Both the position numbers and the translations under genes were made by a program. Positions 1-64,000 of a DNA stretch of 64,000 bases are shown in pieces. Within the stretch, counting starts at the first letter, position 1, and each line of letters begins with the position of its first letter. The stretch lies in contig NC_082732.1 in NCBI RefSeq assembly GCF_030144855.1, positions 11,036,001 through 11,100,000 on the forward strand. The letters run 5' to 3'. The DNA comes from Hypanus sabinus (lineage: Eukaryota). The notes beneath the pieces are model-generated. The model was not told where the DNA came from, made no database searches, and was given only the letters and a program-made list of their open reading frames with translations.

Positions 1-608
1 ACCATCGACAGTTCAAATGAAGTGCAAAACCTGAAAGTTGATCTGGAAGAAGTCATGAGGAAGAAAAAGTTGGAGAGAAGTGCAGTGAATACTGAACAGG
101 AGGCTGAAGAGACTGCGGGAGCAGTGCAGGCCACGTGTTTCCGTTTGGAGAAGATCAAACAGCAGCTACCGATCACAGGGATGAGGAAGAATACAGATTC
201 GATGGATGATGTGCTGGATGTGTGGTACATGCTGCCTTTTGCTGACTTTCCCTCGATTGAGGAAGAGACCTTTGGCCCTTCTCCCATTGAGTCAGGTGTA
301 GCGGGGAGGGTTAGCTGTGTGCAGTGTGGGGCATGAGTGAGAGGTTGAGAGAGGAGTTGGTAGTGGGCCCAAGGTATCCCCAGTTGTGTCCGAGCCTGAA
401 GGGTTTAGGTGAGGGGGTACGGAGGCCTCAGAAGGGTTAGGGAACTCCCAGATAGTTGGCCTAAGTAGCGCCTGAGGAACAGGGCGTGAGGGTTACTGTG
501 TGGGGAGGAGATGTCACTGTTTGTGCTTGGGTTACGGGGTGTTGGCAGGAAAGGTGGCGAGTTATTTAGTAGTCATGAGGACATGACTTTTATTTGGTGG
601 AGGGAGAG
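1..608 (+). mobile_element. 3' internal end of a Gypsy-type LTR retrotransposon (integrase C-terminal tail, 3' UTR, polypurine tract)
   Basis: Acidic low-complexity tail ([15 protein letters not shown]...EEETFGPSP). A decayed RRxQRVRxxPD-like motif lies near 420-460. A purine tract ggtggagggagag (596-608) directly abuts the TG start of an LTR. Confidence 0.7.
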
Positions 609-16894: not shown

Positions 16895-17535
16895 TCATAG
16901 CAAAAGGATTTCAGTACAGGAGCAGGGAGGTTCTACTGCAGTTGTACAAGGCCTTGGTGAGACGCCACCTAGAATATTGTGTGCAGTTTTGTTCCCCTAA
17001 TCTGAGGAAAGACATTCTTGCCATAGAGGGAGTACAGAGAAGGTTCACCAGATTGATTCCTGGGATGGCAGGACTTTCATATGAAGAAAGACTGGATCGA
17101 CTAGGCTTATACTCACTGGAATTTAGAAGATTGAGTGGAGGATCTTATTGAAACGTATAAAATTCTAAAGGGATTGGACAGGCTAGATGCAGGAAGATTG
17201 TTTCCGATGTTGGGGAAGTCCAGAACGAGGGGTCACAGTTTAAGGATAAAGGGGAAACCTTTTAGGACCGAGATGAGGAAAAACTTCTTCACACAGAGAG
17301 TGGTGAATCTGTGGAATTCTCTGCCACAGGAAACAGTTGAGGCTGGTTCATTGGCTATATTTAAGAGGAAGTTAGATATGGCCCTTGTGGCTAAAGGGAT
17401 CAGGGAGTATGGAGAGAAAGCAGGTACAGGGTTCTGAGTTGGATGATCAGCCATGATCATACTGAATGGTGGTGCAGGCTCAAAGGGCCGAATGGCCTAC
17501 TCCTGCACCTATTTTCTAAGTTTCTATGTTTCTAT
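16895..17535 (+). mobile_element. Young 5'-truncated CR1-type LINE
   Basis: YKALVRRHLEYCVQFCSPNLRKDILAIEGVQRRFTRLIPG...RTRGHSLRI...FFTQRVVNLWNSLP, with a (tttctatg)n tail. Nearly identical to 48590-49068. Confidence 0.92.
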
Positions 17536-27235: not shown

Positions 27236-27432
27236 AGGAAATCTGCAGATGCTGGAAATTCAAACAACACACACAAAATGCTGGTGGAACACAGCAGACC
27301 AGGCAGCATCTATAAGGAGGAGCGCTGTCGACGTTTCAGTCCTGATGAAGGGTCTCGGCCCGAAACATCGACAGTGCTTCTCCTTATGCTGCCTGGCCTG
27401 CTGTGTTCCACCAGCATTTTGTGTGTGTTGTT
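27236..27432. mobile_element. Fold-back Penelope-tail mini-element with TSD
   Basis: Inverted arms 27262-27337 and 27362-27433. Direct repeat taaatacacttacagg at 27220-27235 and 27433-27448. Confidence 0.85.
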
Positions 27433-28866
27433 TAAATACACTTACAGGCTCTTTATATACTTACTGCTCATCCTTTGCCCCCCAACCTTTCACACTTTGT
27501 AACACATAATACATTAAGCCGCTCCTTTCCTTCAATATCATAATCTGCAGCAGTTTATGACATTGAAGAAAAGAGAACACATCTTCTAGAGCTGACAGCT
27601 TGCGTACTAGCATGTAGAAGAGGTGGCTGTACAGACAATAGAATAATTAGTGAAGATCTTCCAAAACTCCGTAAGTTCTGGCAACACATACAAATTGCTA
27701 GAGGAACTCTGCAAGTCAGGTGGCATCTCTGGAAAAGAGCAAATGGTTGACATTTCAGGCCAAGACCCTTCAAGAAAGAGGACTCCTGACCTCACAATCT
27801 ATCTTGTTATGTTCATGCACGTTGTTATCTACCTACACTAGAGCAGTTATAATTTATTCTGCATTCTGTTATTGTTCTACCTCAATACACTGTGCAGTGA
27901 TTGCCATGAACTGTATGCAAGGCCAGCTTTTCACTATATCTCAGTACCTGTGTCAATAAGCTAATTCTACGCTTCAAATCCTATTCCATCTGTGTTCTTT
28001 CCTTTGGATGCCTACTTTCTTCACAGAGTCCTCATTTTCATTTATTTTCTGGGTATCTATCCATAAATCTGGAAGCTTCTTTATTCTTCTCATCTCTGCA
28101 AGACTTTTTTTTTGCTCTACAGTTTTGATTATCTTCCTTAGCATTTCCACTGAGCCTCCGAGCTTGATCTTCCTCTTTGACAAGTCTTGGAACTTTTAAG
28201 ATCAACTAGTAATAACAAAATATTCATTTCAAAGCAGCTTGTGGTGCAAAAGTTGGCTAACATATTTGCTGATGCTGTGGTGATGAGTAAAGGTCAAAAA
28301 TACACTTCCAAAGTGAAAATTAGCAGAAAGCATAAGAAAAGATTGCAGTACCTTCTATGGCTAAATTTAAAAAAAGGAGGTAATCTCTGAAATAAAGACA
28401 CAAGAGATTCTGCAGATGCTGGAAATCTAGAGTAACATGCGCAAACTGCTATATTTCAGGCCTTGAACCTTCATTACTCCTTCAGTCATCAGTCCTTATA
28501 AAGATTCTCTGCTCAGATTGCCAACCATTCATTTTCCTCCATGAATGCTGCCTGACCTGTTGAGATACACCATGATTTTGTCGTATCAAAGCTAGATATA
28601 ATTCCAAAAGAAAAAAAAAACGTATGTGGACTAAATAAACCACAGGGTCATTAAACATTTTTTGTTTGCTCTTCAATGCAGAAAGTAAAATAATTGGACA
28701 ATAAATGGAGGAAAATCCATGGGTCTATTGACAATGAGGAACCTACCAGAATGGCACAGTGTCTCAGCTATTACAGCTACAGAAACCCAGGCTTAAGCCT
28801 GATCAATGGGTGCTATCTATGTGCAGTCTGAACATTCTCCTTATGAGTGCTTGCTTTCCTCTAGGT

Positions 28867-36824: not shown

Positions 36825-38125
36825 TTTAGATTCAGTTTATTGTCACTTAGAAACCACAAATGCAATGCAGTTAAGAAATGAGATAACGTTCCTCCAGAAT
36901 GATATCACAAAAGCATATGACAAAACAGACTACATCAGAAAATCCACATAATGTTGGGCAATCCACAATCCAGAGTCCGGAGAGGCTGCTGCATATTAAT
37001 ATTGTGCTACCATCTTAACGCCTTCCCTGGAAAGGAGCTCCAAATCCACCAAACAAAACAAGACCAAAAACTAAAGCTACAAGACCTGAACAAAACCATA
37101 CAGTTACAACATATAGTTACAACAGTGCAAACAATAGCATAATTGATAAAAAAAAAAAGACCATGGGCACAGTAAAAATAGTCCAAAGATGTTAAAAGAC
37201 TGTAAGTTCAAAAGAAACCACCACACAGTTTCCACAAGTCCTCAGGGTCCCAATAGACTCATCATCCCATGCAGGCAGCAGAAGGGAATACCCCCGCTAT
37301 GGACTTCCATGGCGCCACCCGACTCAGCCTCGCAGACGCAGCACACAATGAAAGCTCCGTCGAACCCAGCCTCGCAGACACAGCACACACTGAAAGCTCC
37401 GTCGAACCCAGCCTCGCAGACACAGCACACACTGAAAGCTCCGTCGAACCCAGCCTCGCAGACGCAGCACACAATGAAAGCTCCGTCGAACCCAGCCTCG
37501 CAGACACAGCACACAATGAAAGCTCCGTCGAACCCAGCCTCGCAGACGCAGCACACAATGAAAGCTCCGTCGAACCCAGCCTCGCAGACACAGCACACAC
37601 TGAAAGCTCCGTCGAACCCAGCCTCGCAGACACAGCACACAATGAAAGCTCCGTCGAACCCAGCCTCGCAGACACAGCACACAATGAAAGCTCCGTCGAA
37701 CCCAGCCTCGCAGACACAGCACACACTGAAAGCTCCGTCGAACCCAGCCTCGCAGACACAGCACACACTGAAGGCGACCTGATCGCAACGGACTCCAAGT
37801 CCGTCAAACCTCCGAGCCTCCGACCAATCCCTCCGGCACAACTTCTTCGAGCACTATCCTCTACCAAGCTTATTAAGATGGCCCCGCTAACGGCCATTGG
37901 CAACACAACCCTGAGGACTGGGGGCCTGTTCTTCCCAGCAGAGACCCAGACCTCACAGCAGCAGCAGTAACGAAGAAGGTCTTCCTGGAGATTTTCAGAT
38001 GTTCCTCCGTGCTCCCACATCTGTTTTTCATCCGATTATGATTGCGCACGGCACCCCGCTTCACAAATAACAGATAATCAGCTCTGCAGTGGCCGTTGCA
38101 AGCTGTATCGTGCCGCCATCTTGGA
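36825..38125 (-). mobile_element. Non-autonomous ~1.3 kb retroposon carrying a minisatellite
   Basis: The minus strand begins ccaagatggcggcacg and ends gacaataaactgaatctaa (Rex1-like tail). CpG-rich, so probably young. Confidence 0.6.
37326..37772. repeat. 42-bp minisatellite, 10 full units plus a partial unit
   Basis: Unit agcctcgcagac[a/g]cagcacaca[a/c]tgaaagctccgtcgaaccc. Head-to-tail, no spacers. Confidence 0.97.
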
Positions 38126-48589: not shown

Positions 48590-49068
48590 GAAGGTTCACC
48601 AGATTGTTTCCTGGGATGGCAGGACTTTCATATGAAGAAAGACTGGATCAACTAGGCTTATACTCACAGGAATTTAGAAGTCTGAGGGGGGATCTTATTG
48701 AAACATATAAAATTCTAAAGGTATTGGACAGGCTAGATGCAGGAAGATGTTGGGGAAGTCCAGAACGAGAGGTCACAGTTTAAGGATAAAGGGGAAGCCT
48801 TTTAGGACCGAGATGAGGAAAAACTTCTTCACACAGAGAGTGGTGAATCTGTGGAATTCTCTGCCCCAGGAAACAGTTGAGGCCGGTTCATTGGCTATAT
48901 TTAAGAGGAAGTTAGATATGGTCCTTGTGGCTAAAGGGATCAGGGGGTATGGAGAGAAAGCAGGTATAGGGTTCTGAGTTGGATGATCAGCCACGATCAT
49001 ACTGAATAGCTGTGCAGGCTCAAAGGGCTGAATGGCCTACTCCTGCACCTATTTTTTATGTTTCTATG
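48590..49068 (+). mobile_element. Young 5'-truncated CR1-type LINE nested in an older minus-strand CR1
   Basis: Near-identical to 17040-17535. The flanks (atccttcctgtgctg | tgtcaaccagaagtgctcacaata) read as one interrupted older CR1. Confidence 0.9.
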
Positions 49069-55289: not shown

Positions 55290-55960
55290 GTCATTCAGTC
55301 TGGAGAATACAAACTGGCAATATGCAGCTTTCCTAAATTGTATCTCGAGGAAAATTTCCTGAATATAGAATGGAGAGAGAGGAAGTTAACTTTTACACTT
55401 AATATTTAGCAGTCTATAACAAATAAAGCAGAACAGACTAAAGGAAAGGTGTTATTGTATCCTGTTTGCCACAAGTGGAGAGAAGTTTTTCACATAAGGC
55501 CTGAGGGAATGCAATAGATACATCATTATGAGTTCCCTGGAGATAAAACAATTGACCATTACCAGCTTGCTCCTTGGAGTCAGAAACAGGGAGTATCCTT
55601 CAGCACTTATTTTCAAAGTGCTAGGATTATTAGCAGAGACCCAGCATGTTGCAAATCTGAAGGACTCGCTCATTGCTGAGGAGTATTTGTCAGGCAGTTT
55701 ACCAAAGGGAGCAGTTGCTACATGAGACAAAATGAACTCCATAAATGTATATTCAGATATTAAAGTTATATGGTTGACCAAGGCTAGTACATAACCCTTG
55801 GACGGCCAGCAAAAAGAAATACCCACAGTTGAAGTGTGAGACCAAAGATAGTAAAAAGGAAGGAATGCCACATTTGGTTAAGTTTTGCAAGTATTGTGGG
55901 AAATATCATGAGGAATGAAAGAGAAATGCCGAAATGGGAAAAGGCGAATCCAAAGCAGAT
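55290..55960 (+). mobile_element. Decayed Gypsy gag fragment
   Basis: QKQGVSFSTY / LGLLAETQHVANLKDSLI / FCKYCGKYH remnants resemble Gypsy gag with a zinc knuckle. Confidence 0.5.
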
Positions 55961-56334: not shown

Positions 56335-58035
56335 AGAATCAGAATCAGGTTTACTATCACTGGCATGTGTCGTGAAATTTGTTAACATAGCAGCAGCAGT
56401 TCAATGCAATATGTAATAAATAAATAAATGAATGAATAAATATAAATACAGTACACATATACTGAATAGATTAAAAACAGAAATATATATGTTAAAAAAG
56501 TGAGGTAGCATTCAAGGGTTCAATGTCCATTTAGAAATTCCATGGCAGACGGGAAAAAGCTGCTTCTGAATCGCTGAGAGTGTGCCTTCAGGCTTCTGTG
56601 CCTCCTACCTGATGATAACTGTGAGAAAAGGGCATTCCCTGGGTGCTGGAGGTCCTTAATAATGGACACTGCCTTTCTGATACACCGCTGCTTGAAGATG
56701 TCCTGAGTTAGTACCCAAGATGGAGCCAACTAAATTTACAACCCTCTGCAGCTACTTTTGGTCCTGTACAGTAGCCCCCTCCCTATACCAGACAGTGATG
56801 CAGCCTGTCACAATGCTCTCCATGGCACATCTATAGAAGTTTTTGAGTGTACTTGTTGACATACCCAATCTTTTCAAACTCTTAATGAAGTATAGTCACT
56901 TCTTTGCAACTGCACCGATATGTTGGGACCCAGTTAAGTCCTCACAGATCTTGATAGCCAGGAACTTGAAACTGCTCACTCTCTCCACTTCTGATCCCTC
57001 TATGAGGACTAGCATATGCTCCTTCATCTTACCCTTCTTGAAGTCCACTATTTGCTCTTTCGTCTTACTGACATTGAGTGCAAAGTTGCTGCAGTGACAC
57101 CACTCCACTAGTTGGCATATTTCATTCCTGTTTGCTCTCTCATCTGAGATTCTACCAACAATGGTCATATCATCAGCAAATTTTTAGATGGTATTTGATC
57201 TATGCCTAGCCACACAGTCATGGGTATAGAGAGAGTAGAGCAGTGGGCTAAGAACACACACGCGAGGTGCACCAGTGTTGATCGTCAGCGAGGAGGAGAT
57301 GTAATCACCCATCTGCACAGATTGTGATCTTCTGGTTGGGAAGTTGAGGATGCAGTTGCAGAGGGAGGTACAGAGGCCCAGGTTCTGTAACTTCTCAATC
57401 AGGATTGTGGGAATGATGGTATTAAGTGCTGAGCTACAGTCGATGAACAGCATCCTGACATTGGTGTTTGTGTTGTTTAGGTGGTCTAAAGCCGTGTGGA
57501 GAGCCATTGAGATTGTGCCTGCTGTTGACCTCTTGTACTGATAGGTAAATTGCAATGGGTCCATGTCCTTGCTGAAGCAGGAGTTTAGTCTAGTCATGAC
57601 CAACCACTCAAATCATTTCATCACTGTAGGTGTGAGTGCTACTGGGCAATAGTCATTAAGGCAGCTCACATTATTCTTCTTGGGCACTAGTATAATTGTT
57701 GCCTTTTTGAAGCAAGTGGGGATTTCTGCCCTTGGCAGTGAGAGGTTGAAAATATCCTTGAATACTCCCGCCGGTTGCTTGGCACAAGTTTTCAGAGCCT
57801 TACCAGAAACCCTACCCGGACCTTCTGCCTTGCGAGGGTTCACCCTCTTTAAAGGCAGCCTAACATCGGCCTCTGAGACATTGATCACAGGGTCATCAGG
57901 TGCAGCAGGGATCTTCACAGCTGTAGTTATATTCTCCCTTTCAAAGCAGACATAGAAAGTGTTGAGTTCATCTGGTAGTGAAGCATCGCTGCCATTCATG
58001 CTATTGAGTTTCGCTTTGTAGGAAGTAATGACTTG
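56335..58035 (-). mobile_element. Rex1/Babar LINE, RT domain to 3' tail, frameshifted
   Basis: CLNDYCPVALTPTVMK; DPLQFTYQYKRSTAGTISMALH...VRMLFIDCSSALNTIIP...TGAPRVCVLSPLLYSLYTHDC; LNVSKTKEQIVDF; (ctgatt) tail at ~56335-56348. Confidence 0.92.
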
Positions 58036-60339
58036 CAAACCCATGACCATCCAAGACCATGATTGTTCTTCGCAATCTTTTCTACAGAAGTGGTTTGCCA
58101 TTGCCTTCTTCTGGGCAGTGTCTTTAAAAGATGGGTGATCCCAGCCATTATCAATACTCTTCAAAGATTGTCTGCCTGGTGTTGGTGGTCGCATAACCAG
58201 GGCGGGACACGTGCACCAGCTGCTCATTCGAACATTCACCACCTGCTCCCATGGCTTCATGTGACCCAGATTGTTGGGGAGGGGGAATTGATGCTAAGCA
58301 GGTGCTACACCTTGCCCAAGGGTGACCTACAGGCTAGAGGAGGGAAGGAGTGCCTTACACTTCCTTCAGAAGAGATGCATCTCCACTCCGCCACACAACT
58401 CATCAGGGTGCATGTTGTATTTCCTTTAGCTTTTGAGTGGCCTTGCTGTAGTTTCTTGCTATTGTCCACATGGCTGAATCAGGACAAGTTGATGGTGATA
58501 CTTACACTTAAGAACTTGAAGTTTTTAACCATTTTCTCTTCAGCGTTCCTTAATTCAGACAGGGCAAGTGCTCTCCACGGCTTCCTGAAATTAATAACGG
58601 GCTACTTTGTGTTAATAAAGGAACACACAATTGATTCTGAGTGATAATTTAGTTGTTTTGTTTGCTTTAGCTCTTTGTATTGAAGGAAGGAAATAACATG
58701 TGTGATATGTTTCATAGAATCCATGAAGACATGAATTTGTACACGAGTACATTTGTTCCTGTAACACTATCAACCCTTGAACATTTGTGTCAAGTGACTA
58801 TCCGTAGCCTGGTGTTGCAACTGTATTAGAGGGCAGACAGTCCCAGAGAGACTGTTGAAAGAAAGCAACTGTATGCAAATTGTTCCATAAATAATGCAGC
58901 TTTGTCTGTAGTTTAAATCACAAATTATTTCCAGTCCCTTGGAGAGATGAAAGGAATATACTCAGATAATCACCAGCCATTGCAGCTGACTACTGTATAA
59001 TGGCTGTACTGGGTCATATAGACATACTCTTGGTATCTTCAAACTGTGATGGGTCGCTTTCAGCTCTCCAGATGTGGTTTAATATGTCTGTCAGTTCTCC
59101 CTCGGATTCAATATCACGCTGAACAAAATAAGCAGAATACTGACACCCACCTCAGCAGGAGTGAAATTCTGCCTGGACAGCCTAGAATCTGCAAGTATGA
59201 ACACTGAATTATCTATCTCCTGACAGCTTTGCTTTACTCCACCCCTCCCCCCCAGTAGCTTTTCTTTCCCCTGAGCCATGCTTCTTACCCCTCTTCCCAT
59301 CTGCCCATCACCCACTCACTGGCTCCCTTTTGCCCATCCTACCTCACTGTTCTACGCTCTGCCTTCCTCTGCTGCTAGAAGCTATCGTCTTTAACCCTGA
59401 ACGTCCTGAAGAAGGGTGTTGGCCTGGAAAGTCAGCCGTTTGTTCATTTTCATGGATGCTGCCTGACCTGCAGAATTTCTTGCATTTATCTTCAACCTTT
59501 TGTCATTCGCACTTACTGTATCACCTCGCATCCTGTTACGCACAATTTATATTTGAGAGGTAGAACATGTTTGTATCCAGTAAGTATGTAGTGTTCTGCC
59601 TTACACATATCAAGTGAGATCTTTCCGTTGTCCCTGTGGTTCTCTAAACTTTACAGCATATCACTCTGGTACCCATATTTAACTCAGCAAGCCTGGATGT
59701 TGTCAACTTCCTTATATAGACCTGCTCAGCTAAAATTTCTACTTCATGGTCAGTCAAATGGGATTGAGGCATTCCAGCTTTACTACTAATGTGAATGCAG
59801 GCCACTTTGGGAAACAAACAAACTCATTTTACAGACATCTGTAAATTGAGTTTTTCCTTAAGTTGGAAAATACAGAAAAATCACTCTGTATAATAATCAT
59901 ACCACCATAGTATTAAATAATGGCATCAAAATCTCATGATTAATAAAAATGTTCTTTAAAATTGAGAGAGAGAGAGAAAACAGTTCTGCTGTTCATAGGA
60001 AGGACTGGGCGTATATCAGATTTTTAAATTATGTAGGGGTTATCTATAAGTTAGACAGTTCTGAACCAGGGACAGCCTGAAGTCTATTATATTTCTAATT
60101 ATTTTTGCCTACTTGAAAGATTAAACAACTGAGAGCTATGGGGAACTGGCAAATCGAGCTGAGGCCATTTTGGATCAGCCGTGATTGTATTGAATAGTGA
60201 GTTAGCATTGAGGAGGCCTGGTGGCCTATTCCTGCTCTTATTTTCTTGCATTCTTGTTCTTGTTCTGTTTCTCTGTCATTCTGGGAATTTGTACAAGTTG
60301 CAACATGTGTAAGTTGCACTAGTCCTTTAAGATGTAGTG

Positions 60340-60419
60340 CAGGGTTTCTCAACCTCTTTCATGCCATGGACCAATTCCATTAAGCAAAGTGTCCATAAAC
60401 CCCAAGCTGGGAACCCCTG
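60340..60419. mobile_element. Tiny hAT-type MITE (80 bp)
   Basis: cagggtttctcaac / gctgggaacccctg TIRs. Interior homologous to 28867-28937. Confidence 0.65.
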
Positions 60420-60894
60420 ATTTGTTTCAACTTTACAAGTCAGTGTTTGCACCAAATTCTTGTGGATGTGATCAACATTACTTATCAATTCCCAATTAAG
60501 CAGCATTTAAAAATGCTGTCTTCAGCACTTTTGGTCTAGAAGTTACACAATTATATCCACAATCCTCCAATTTGAACTGCTGCACTTGCTGATTTGCCTG
60601 CTTAATGGTCCCAACAGCACTTAGTTTTGTGGAAGTCTTCCAGAAATGTGTAGCAAATAAATACTAGAGTTCCCCTTCTGGTAGGGAATGAAGTGACTGA
60701 TACTTACGTTGGAATGGTAAACATGCAGTAATCTTTGTCTTTGCAAGTTCAATTACACTGTTCAGCAAAGAAGCAGGACCTTCAGTTGATTGTGTCTATG
60801 TTGGTAAAATTAAGAACCCATATATTAATCCATTTATCAGCCTTACATGCCATGCCAATTCAAGTTCTCATTTAAATAATTTTTAAATCTTATG

Positions 60895-61330
60895 CCCATA
60901 GGATATAAGGGCAGAATTAGGATATTCAATCCATTAAGTTTCCTCCACTATTTAACTGCATTCTTCCAGTATCCCTTTACCCCCTTAGCAGTCAAGGACC
61001 TATCACTCTTTGCCTTAAATACACCCAAAGGCTTGACCTTCACAACCTTTAATGGCAAGAAATGCCACAGATTTAATACCCTCTGGCTGTAGAAACCCTC
61101 CCTCATCTCAGCTTTAAGGAAAGTCCTTTTATTCTGAAGGTGTGCTCTCGGATCCTGAACTCTACTAATAATGGAAGTGTCCTCTCTATCTCCACCCTAA
61201 TCACGCATTTTAGTATTTAGTTGTAGGTTTTAATGAGATCCCCCCCCCCCCCGCCCTCACCTTTCTGAAATCCTCACATGCTAGTTCTTTCACTCCTATG
61301 ATCATTTTTCTGAATGTTACCTGGACCCTT
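60895..61330 (-). mobile_element. CR1-type LINE 3' fragment
   Basis: Reverse complement of a CR1 C-terminus and UTR (cacagatttaataccctctggctgtagaaa, ttttattctgaagg). Confidence 0.6.
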
Positions 61331-61376
61331 CATTGATTTCTGAAGGCAAAGTATTAAAAAAGGCAGAAAATGGAAG

Positions 61377-61715
61377 TAACACATACAAAATATTGGTGGA
61401 ACACAGCAGGCCAGGCAGCATCTATAGGGATAAGTGCTGTTGACGTTTTGGGCTGAGACCCTTTGTCAGGACTGACTGAAAGGAAAGATAGTAAGAGATT
61501 TACCCCACCCACTCCAGTCTTCTCCTATCAATTCGCATTTTCCCCTCCCCCTCCTATTTCCAAATCTCTTGCTATCTTTCTTTTCAGTTAGTCCTGACAA
61601 AGGGTTTCAGCCCAAAACGTCAACAGCGCTTCTCCCTATAGATGCTGCCTGGCCTGCTGTGTTCCACCAGCATTTTGTGTGTGTTGCTTGAATTTCCAGC
61701 ATCTGCAGATTTCCT
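61377..61715. mobile_element. Fold-back Penelope-tail mini-element with 12-bp TSD, inserted just upstream of Gypsy gag
   Basis: Inverted arms ~61378-61501 and ~61562-61685. TSD agaaaatggaag at 61365-61376 and 61716-61727. Confidence 0.9.
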
Positions 61716-61757
61716 AGAAAATGGAAGAACTTGTGTTCATGGTGACAATAAACAGAA

Positions 61758-62948
61758 ATGGTTGGCTACATTGGAAAGACAGACACATTTGATTACACAG
61801 AAGAAAAAAGTATTTTATATACTGAGCAAATTAAGCAGCATTTTGAAGCAAATGAAGTAGCCAAAAAAAAGTGCCAATTTTGCTGAGTACATTGGATTTA
61901 AAGGCAAACAGTGTGCATCAAAGGTTGACTGCTCTGACCAAACCTGCAGAAATAAGCTTTGCTGCTATTGTGAAAGATATGCAGGAATATTTAGAACTGA
62001 AGCCTTTGTTGATTGCAGAGCACTTCAGGCAGGTTTCATAAGTGGAATCAAAAAGAAGGGCAGTTCATTTCAGTGTGTGTGGCTAAATTGAAGAGATTTT
62101 CTGAACTTTGTCAGTTCAGAGCTTAAAGATACACAAGAGATCATTTAGTTTGTGGAATTTTACAGTACAAGGAAGCATTCAGAAATGGCTCCCAATTGAA
62201 GTCCAGCTTATATTTAAAACAGCAGTTGAAATCATTGATTGCAGACAGACGCAGTTGATCTGTAGAGAGGAATGAAAGTGAATGTGAATACAATTGCAGC
62301 ATCCAAACAGAAACTAGCCTGGCCAAACAAATTGTGCTACCATTGTAGCAGAGATCTCACATACACCAAAAGTATGCAGAATTACGGTTAAACCTGCAGA
62401 AAATGCAACAAGGTAGGACACACACAAAGAACATATTGGTCAGACAAAAATAAATAGACTGCGTAGGGAAAAGAAAAGGTTAAAAAATCGAATTGTAGTT
62501 TCAAAAATCTGCATGCTGTTTGTGAAAAATCTGATAATGATCAGAGTTGCACAGGACCAAGCAGCCTTCAGATTTACAATGTGAAAATTAACAATAGACA
62601 AGCAATGTGGCTTACACCAGAAGTGAACAACAAATTAGTTAAAATAGAAATAGACACTTGTTTGGCTGTTTTAGTAATTCTACAACATGAGTTTGAGAGG
62701 CACTGAAGAATCTAAACTGCAGCCTGTAGATATCCAACTGGAGAAAAGATAACTCCTGTAGGAATTACATCTGTAACAGTGAAATACAACAAGCAACAAG
62801 CCACATTGAGGTTGTATTGTGGGGGTGGGGTTGGCTGAGACAGCTACAATTTGACTGAAGATCCATTCACAATTTGCATGCCACATCCCCTGCAATGAAG
62901 CCATATGAAAGCAAATTAGGAAAGGTACCGGATGATTCCACAACTGTC
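61758..62948 (+). mobile_element. Decayed Gypsy gag-protease region
   Basis: MVGYIGKTDTFD...YTEQIKQHFEANEV...PILLST...KPLLIAEHFR...RDHLVCGI. Knuckle TCRKCNKVGH at ~62390-62425. Protease KIEIDTC at 62641-62661 (DTG decayed). Post-protease WLRQLQFD...KLGKVPDD. Confidence 0.88.
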
Positions 62949-63549
62949 TCCATGCTGGACACCATGAATACTTGCCCAACAGAGGACAAAGATGTGTTGG
63001 TGCTGACCTCTGTGCCTCTGGTTGGAAAGAATAAGGAAGGACACTGTTGCTCAGAGGAAGCTTGGAAGTGGCTAATGCAGTGGTCTAACTACAAGAGCTT
63101 TTGTAGGCACCATATCTGAGAATGCTTCTAATATGTTAATCAAGCAGTTACTAATTAAATGTGGCTTTGTTTTAAGCTGGAAGGGAGTACACGGAGTTTC
63201 AGCAAAGTTGCAAGCATCTGGTTTTTGTGAATTTACAGAACCAGAATCTACTCCTGTGTGCATTGAAGTTATTGCATAAACTTCAAGCGGGAGACAAAAA
63301 AACTGCTAGTCAAAGAAGACCGACAGACCAAAGTCCAGCAAGATGAAAGGAAAGCTAAAAAACAAAGGAGTCAATTGAGATACAAAAACAAAGGGTTTGT
63401 CAGATGATGTTGTGGATGTGGAAACTAAGAGAAAAGATCAGATCATAAAGGGAGCTATAGAAGGACTAATAAGAGAATACTCCACTGATCTAAGTGGACC
63501 TTCCCAAGATCAAGATGCACAAAGAAGAAGAAAAAGGAAGAAGAAGAAA
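62937..63549 (+). pseudogene. RBM25: Intron-less RBM25 fragment (retrocopy): N-terminal flank, RRM and following helix, embedded in a Gypsy element
   Basis: Manual translation across frameshifts: VLVLTSVPLVGK / SGLTTRAFVGTISENASNMLIKQLLIKCGFVLSWKGVHGVSAKLQASGFCEFTEPEST / LCALKLLHKLQAGDKK / LLVKEDRQTKVQQDERKAKK / KGVN*DTK...VDVETKRKDQIIKGAIEGLIREYSTDLSGPSQDQDAQRRRKRKKKK. This is colinear with vertebrate RBM25 as recalled (TTVFVGNISEKASDMLIRQLLAKCGLVLSWKRVQGASGKLQAFGFCEYKEPESTLRALRLLHDLQIGEKKLLVKVDAKTKAQLDEWKAKK...DEETKRRDQMIKGAIEVLIREYSSELNAPSQ). At least 3 frameshifts and a TGA at 63376. The 5' boundary is uncertain (62937-62990). Confidence 0.93.
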
Positions 63550-63818
63550 TGTGTCCAGAGCTGTCTGAAGCACTTCCTACTGTCTCAGATTCAACTCCAA
63601 CAATCACCAAAGAGGAGGCCCAGGGACTTGAGATTGGGGTGGCTACCACTGTCAGAACCATTTCCCACAGTCTCAGATTCAGCTTCTACAACCACTACAG
63701 AGAGGCCCCAGAACCTGAGATCGTTTCACAGCCAGTCACACCTACCAAGCAGAGAGATCTCTCTAGTCAGGAAAAACGTTATCCCACAGGAGTAAGAAGC
63801 CCTAACGCAAAATTAGAC
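63543..63818 (+). mobile_element. Gypsy integrase C-terminal tail
   Basis: P/E/S/T-rich CPELSEALPTVSDSTPT...EAPEPEIVSQP ending in KRYPTGVRSP..L, the RRYPxRxRxxPxRL-type terminal motif of Gypsy pol. No clear 3' LTR follows within the window. Confidence 0.75.
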
Positions 63819-64000
63819 CCTCATTCCCAGACTCCAGTGTCTTCCTTTGAAATGGTTTAATGTTTTGAAGTCACAGAACATAACACTCAATATTGCTCAT
63901 GACATTCCACAAAAGGTCTGACCATTGCCTTACAAAGCCTCAGCATTACAAATCTGCATTTAGATGTTGTCAGATTCTTCTCTTCCACCACCCTTTAAGT

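Follow-up and report, generated by a model that had tools for sequence, protein, structure and literature searches.

A decayed block of probable retroelement origin carrying an intron-free RBM25-family fragment in Hypanus sabinus, likely the result of template-switch capture

A disabled, intron-free fragment of an RBM25-family gene lies within a 2.15-kb block of decayed, Gypsy-like sequence in a 64,000-nucleotide stretch of Hypanus sabinus DNA (the window). We regard the block as a likely dead LTR-mediated retrocopy, generated by a double template switch onto a co-packaged RBM25 mRNA in a Gypsy-type particle. Such a capture had been proposed from a sequence-only reading of the window; no other explanation fits as well, and the contrary results which that reading had listed were not seen, but the mechanism has already been described across animals (Tan et al., 2016, PMC5131818; this and the other papers are cited from the available part of their text), and the block is probably not a new kind of element.

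The translated segment 63031-63549, with stops written as X, was searched with phmmer against 1.84 billion nameless representative sequences, which yielded 198 matches at E ≤ 0.001, the best with E = 4.9e-40 over query residues 3-173. The name RBM25 was assigned because of the domain layout of the homologues rather than a named best match: 23 of the 26 long homologues scanned, out of 35 listed of at least 580 amino acids, contain both an RRM and a PWI domain, and an N-terminal RRM plus a C-terminal PWI is the layout of RBM25 (PMC3553564). Judged by this layout, the insert belongs to the RBM25 family. A profile of the family, built from 22 RRM+PWI homologues (one fused model was dropped), gave a single match across the six frames of the window (63082-63546, E = 7.4e-33). 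Pfam placed RRM_1 in the frame 63076-63276 marginally below threshold (E = 0.0004, 20.6 bits versus a cut-off of 20.7), the Atlas neighbours of the RRM frame are RRM clusters at 0.92, and a PDB sequence search with the piece returned only the CstF-64 RRM (E about 1e-3). Word-index searches matched the piece to 2 of 18 near-length proteins and to none of 970 candidates among longer proteins; the blank is weak, since full-length RBM25 was missed as well. For one 359-aa protein, possibly human, the match is confined to query residues 2-62 and lies at residues 278-338 of the protein. Altogether, these searches bear out the earlier claim of an RBM25-family piece on the + strand, in the same sense as the gag-like frames; the piece had been estimated at about 610 bp, and the length with tool support is 513 nt.

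A frameshift-aware alignment resolves 63100-63549 into four consecutive frame segments with no gap above 2 nt, and therefore the fragment contains no intron. It is truncated at both ends, spanning positions 48-203 of the 736 profile positions (54-203 in the frameshift-aware part), and is disabled by three frameshifts and one stop (63073). No poly(A) was found downstream of the fragment, and no significant target site duplication (TSD) around it. The best repeat of the junction zones is an 8-mer at 62943 and 63579, which was rejected as a TSD of the piece because a length of at least 8 was reached in 21 of 300 shuffles. The intron-free state and the lack of poly(A) and TSD agree with what had been read from the sequence alone.

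The evidence that introns were lost is indirect. Among the 54 listed matches of at most 160 aa, 32 begin to align at query residue 106 or later; in 8 of them the unmatched N-terminal part has sufficient length to extend to the RRM, and two short matches with such late starts sit on contigs of 1.9 and 2.6 kb. Starts at about residue 106 are what gene calls limited to one exon of a genomic contig would produce, which would indirectly imply an exon boundary near query residues 106-128 and the loss of at least one intron. A second exon boundary is possible at query residues 37-43, where 9 of the 150 matches listed (198 in total) begin. We assume that human RBM25 has four introns within the span matching the fragment and that both fragment ends would fall close to exon edges in that layout; a literature search found no exon map for vertebrate RBM25.

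The fragment ends in a pure purine run of 29 nt at its 3′ junction, which is a candidate switch or priming site and was rejected as a poly(A). On the 5′ side, about 43 nt (62994-63036) that we take to resemble RBM25 precede the fragment. The adjoining stretch of about 45 nt (62949-62993) is assigned to neither source; it may represent an RBM25 exon that has diverged, sequence from a third template, or filler. A stop-free frame (62859-63119) runs across this junction, and the original fusion of element and RBM25 may have been in frame, for which the chance expectation is one in three; an intact chimeric ORF was rejected.

For the sequences flanking the fragment we infer a Gypsy identity and a common origin. 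Gag, protease, linker and integrase tail presumably stem from a Mag-like Gypsy element of cartilaginous fishes and stand in the right order, and both flanks presumably come from one Gypsy family. In the knuckle region, Pfam zf-CCHC matched 62392-62430 (E = 0.0017, 18.8 bits, below the cut-off of 20.8). The gag-like frame that opens with the ATG at 61758 meets a stop after 42 codons. For the gag-like frame 61856-62038, the nearest Atlas clusters are unnamed eukaryote clusters at 0.90-0.92; one cluster at 0.88 carries Retrotrans_gag in 18% of its members, which is a lead only, and a PDB sequence search with the gag piece gave no match. The protease-like region has D-T-C at 62653-62661 where D-T-G is expected, and found no support in Pfam, PDB (designed-repeat noise only) or fold searches. 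Its single-sequence fold (pLDDT 55) gave no Foldseek match at E ≤ 0.001 and a best VIA Z of 5.5, to unrelated beta-sandwiches, and is uninformative. The tail-like segment was blank in Pfam and in the word-index search (0 of 129, a weak blank given that the index also missed full-length RBM25). Within it lies a 74-nt direct duplication (63561-63634 and 63649-63721, 78% identity, 14-nt spacer), which may reflect one more template switch or be typical of the family. Taken together, Pfam, PDB, NCBIfam, fold, plasmid, prokaryote-genome and word-index searches yielded no Gypsy homologue of either flank. The sequence-only reading had described the order gag, knuckle, protease and tail; tools weakly support the knuckle and the gag, but not the protease or the tail. 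It was correct that reverse transcriptase (RT), RNase H and the integrase core are absent between the protease-like region and the tail: none has a Pfam match in the six frames of 61600-64000, and 62948 to 63550 leaves no room for them.

The sequence-only reading had listed neither the site of the block nor the tail duplication or the missing LTR pair and polypurine tract. The whole block splits an antisense LINE remnant, which is older and presumably CR1-like, at one point. The left half of the remnant aligns from 60866 to about 61329 to all four other copies in the window with scores of 130-186, compared with shuffled maxima of 38-45, and its alignment end is fuzzy, between 61314 and 61376. 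The right half aligns to two of the four copies (scores 54 and 43, shuffled maxima 39 and 33). The halves are colinear across the block within 15 and 58 nt, and the joined flanks align over the junction to the copy at 53 kb with a score of 88, compared with 46 and 49 when taken apart. Boundary scans place the block ends only within about 61328-61730 and 63860-63894. The SINE-like hairpin next to the left half consists of two inverted pieces and is bounded by a perfect 12-bp TSD (61365-61376 and 61716-61727). A similar hairpin is present at 27258-27437. An Rfam search of 60500-64000 gave one sub-threshold miRNA match, which lies on the SINE-like hairpin and was rejected.

Several other features were observed in the window. 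On the minus strand, a decayed LINE with reverse transcriptase (56600-58000; RVT_1 at 57184-57609, E = 1.1e-8) is unrelated to the RBM25 block, and a stop-free frame of 141 aa at 55452-55877 has no Pfam match. Two young LINE 3′ copies (17039-17505 and 48590-49045) share 94-96% identity. A 42-bp tandem array at 37325-37772 comprises 10.7 copies with 97% matches and is open in five of the six frames. Positions 1-330 (+) form a coding-like stop-free frame in a stretch of 51% GC, possibly a host exon, with no Pfam match.

Neither LTR is complete in the block. The final stretch of about 75 nt is in our view the 3′ end of an LTR (R-U5). Self-comparison revealed no LTR pair (63790-64000 against 59000-61760 scored 21, shuffled mean 22), and the LINE leaves room for at most about 60 nt of LTR on the left and about 80 nt on the right; in insects, the LTRs of Mag elements are 119-304 nt long (PMC3286476). 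The 12-nt stub found where the 5′ LTR is expected matches the reverse complement of the 3′ end of the block at 7 of 8 nt, which may be chance or a collapsed LTR. The motif directly after the stub would, by the TGG rule, act as the primer binding site (PBS). No polypurine tract (PPT) was detected: there is no purine run of at least 9 nt after 63618, and neither a PPT nor a U3 precedes the final stretch. A PBS for tRNA-Ser or -Leu and a 5-bp TSD are the expectation for the Mag clade (PMC3286476). No 5-bp element TSD was found, and a 4-bp TSD was rejected, the best terminal duplication agreeing at only 3 of 4 nt.

Features of the RBM25 block and of the LINE remnant around it. Positions refer to the window.
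Feature	Position	Strand	Basis
LINE remnant, left half	60866..61376	-	aligns to four other window copies
Hairpin-shaped SINE-like insertion, later, outside the capture	61377..61715	.	arms 91% identical, relatives in window
12-nt stub ending in CA where 5′ LTR is expected	61728..61739	.	sequence
PBS-like motif starting with TGG, 18 nt 5′ of the gag-like ATG	61740..61750	+	sequence
Decayed gag-like region over three frames	61758..62325	+	weak Atlas neighbours; otherwise presumed from prior knowledge
Degenerate double zinc-knuckle region	62326..62454	+	Pfam zf-CCHC, sub-threshold
Protease-like region and start of protease-RT linker	62566..62948	+	presumed resemblance to Mag-like Gypsy
5′ junction zone: about 45 nt, then about 43 nt RBM25-like (presumed)	62949..63036	+	
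RBM25 fragment, intron-free: RRM and downstream helical and K/R-rich stretch	63037..63549	+	phmmer, profile, frameshift-aware alignment
Pure purine run, 29 nt, at 3′ junction	63521..63549	+	sequence
Integrase-tail-like segment	63550..63810	+	identity presumed from prior knowledge
About 75 nt ending in AACA, resembling LTR 3′ end (R-U5)	63811..63885	+	terminal CA; identity presumed from prior knowledge
LINE remnant, right half	63886..63976	-	alignment 63892-63976

In the capture that we favour, an RBM25 mRNA would have been packaged, presumably side by side, with the RNA of a Mag-like Gypsy element. Reverse transcriptase, travelling 3′ to 5′ along the element, would have left it at the integrase tail, which presumes that the 3′ switch came first, and joined the RBM25 mRNA at the purine-rich lysine/glutamate stretch. 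After copying about 510-560 nt of spliced coding sequence it would have switched back to the element immediately past the protease, whereby RT, RNase H and integrase were skipped; microhomology may have been present at the switch points. The product would then have entered the old LINE remnant and decayed. The LTR pair and the PPT might be missing through later deletion, or reverse transcription might never have been completed.

We favour template-switch capture because the insert has RBM25-family identity, a contiguous alignment and indirect evidence of lost introns, and because the knuckle and gag-like signals upstream lie in the same sense, with everything contained in one block at one LINE site. 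The truncation at both ends together with the lack of poly(A) and TSD also speaks for it, since this matches the retrocopies described in PMC5131818. Against it count the lack of a Gypsy homologue for either flank, the absence of both LTRs where both are expected (PMC5131818), the lack of a convincing integrase TSD and the stretch of about 45 nt at the 5′ junction, which it does not explain. The copy in the block makes no protein and cannot move, because its frames are dead and it has neither an LTR pair nor a PPT; thus, in its present state, it offers neither coding nor mobile potential and is not itself a mobile non-autonomous element. The earlier suggestion of a non-autonomous family carrying an RRM finds no support in this copy, whose RRM is broken.

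A tentative and rather unlikely extension of template-switch capture is that the block is the fossil of an unfinished minus-strand cDNA reaching from the PBS to the end of U5. From PBS to U5 is exactly as far as minus-strand DNA extends until plus-strand transfer takes place; the idea depends on our assumption about the LTR end. A faulty first jump would have carried strong-stop DNA to the integrase tail, so that PPT and U3 were passed over; synthesis would then have moved to the RBM25 mRNA and back to the element after the protease, which makes at least three switches in one particle. Fixation in the germline with no LTR pair might have been achieved by break repair, or by integrase if it used the CA end that had been copied from the PBS. 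If true, this would be a natural capture of a host gene in which the LTR element at no stage produced a provirus-like copy, and an integrated intermediate of reverse transcription would matter more than a further retrocopy.

The main rival, an origin in two steps, is unlikely: here a resident Gypsy element would later have received an RBM25 mRNA or cDNA, through target-primed reverse transcription by a LINE or through capture at a double-strand break, and about 3 kb of pol would have been deleted. Internal priming in A/G-rich runs is established for LINE-type reactions, and the purine run at the 3′ junction fits it equally well. Furthermore, cartilaginous fishes commonly carry retrocopies, whose abundance follows non-LTR content (10.64898/2026.06.26.734816), pieces of spliced mRNA that lack poly(A) are captured in break repair (PMC4516963), and the repeated 8-mer may be counted in its favour. 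However, an 8-mer of this kind is no more than chance predicts, part of the tail-like sequence would lie between its two copies, and poly(A) is absent. The two steps also need a rare small target, an insertion in sense and a large deletion that removed precisely the pol core.

Quite improbable, in our judgement, is that a single capture occurred in a master copy whose LTRs were complete, and that this master copy multiplied as a non-autonomous element and left the block as a truncated daughter. Secondary spread is known for two fly retrocopies and for maize Bs1 (PMC5131818), and the stop-free frame across the 5′ junction is compatible with such a family. On the other hand, self-comparison and profile search revealed no second RBM25-element copy within the 64-kb window, and the block copy lacks both an LTR pair and a PPT. 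Nor was a chimeric RBM25 protein found, which weighs little, as the word-index searches also missed full-length RBM25. A rearrangement at the DNA level or an assembly chimera, in which a Gypsy remnant was joined to an unrelated, older RBM25 pseudogene, is very improbable: several deletions and a duplication at the locus would suit it, but the only Ns in the window are at 1852-1989 and none is near the block, the LINE is colinear across the block, and what we take to be the Gypsy order is kept on both sides.

A literature search found no earlier account of an RBM25 capture; the supplements of a retrocopy survey of 244 genomes, which counted 14,081 retrocopies in cartilaginous fishes, could list the locus (10.64898/2026.06.26.734816). 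If template-switch capture is right, the block extends LTR-mediated retroposition, by a single decayed example, to a lineage that the six species of PMC5131818 do not cover. It would also suggest an LTR route for some of these 14,081 retrocopies, which the survey, in its available text, links to non-LTR elements. Many copies, if found, would point to a mobile element carrying the RRM of a splicing factor, which would matter more.

Among known systems, processed pseudogenes made by LINEs resemble the RBM25 piece in being intronless and disabled, but the piece has no gene 3′ end, poly(A) or TSD, and by these hallmarks it is not a LINE-type processed pseudogene. RT-product-mediated break repair (RMDR, PMC4516963) likewise yields truncated pieces of LTR elements and spliced mRNAs that lack LTRs, TSD and poly(A), with short extra sequence at the junctions. 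Its pieces are randomly truncated, whereas the block appears to run from the PBS to the LTR end with the order of the element kept. In maize Bs1 and in the human FAM8A1 pseudogene within HERV-K, host exonic sequence inside an LTR element replaces pol (PMC5131818), as it presumably does here. Bs1 exists in 1-5 copies and is cited as possibly coding (PMC5131818); in the block, by contrast, the frames are dead and the ends required for movement are missing. The closest description is that of LTR-mediated retrocopies by Tan et al. (2016, PMC5131818), who report this structure in all 15 assembled polymorphic retrocopies of the fly and elsewhere in mosquito (1 of 3), zebrafish (5 of 7), chicken (4 of 10), mouse (8) and human (3). 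According to the available part of that paper, these copies show microsimilarity and lack poly(A) and TSD; secondary spread occurs, LTR remnants can disappear with time, and in four older vertebrate cases the LTR remnant has been lost on one side. The block lies outside their six species, is much more decayed and has no LTR pair. It shares with them an mRNA truncated at both ends, in sense orientation and lacking poly(A) and TSD, that presumably replaces internal ORFs of an LTR element, disabled as in the older cases (PMC5131818). The block probably belongs to this class of LTR-mediated retrocopies.
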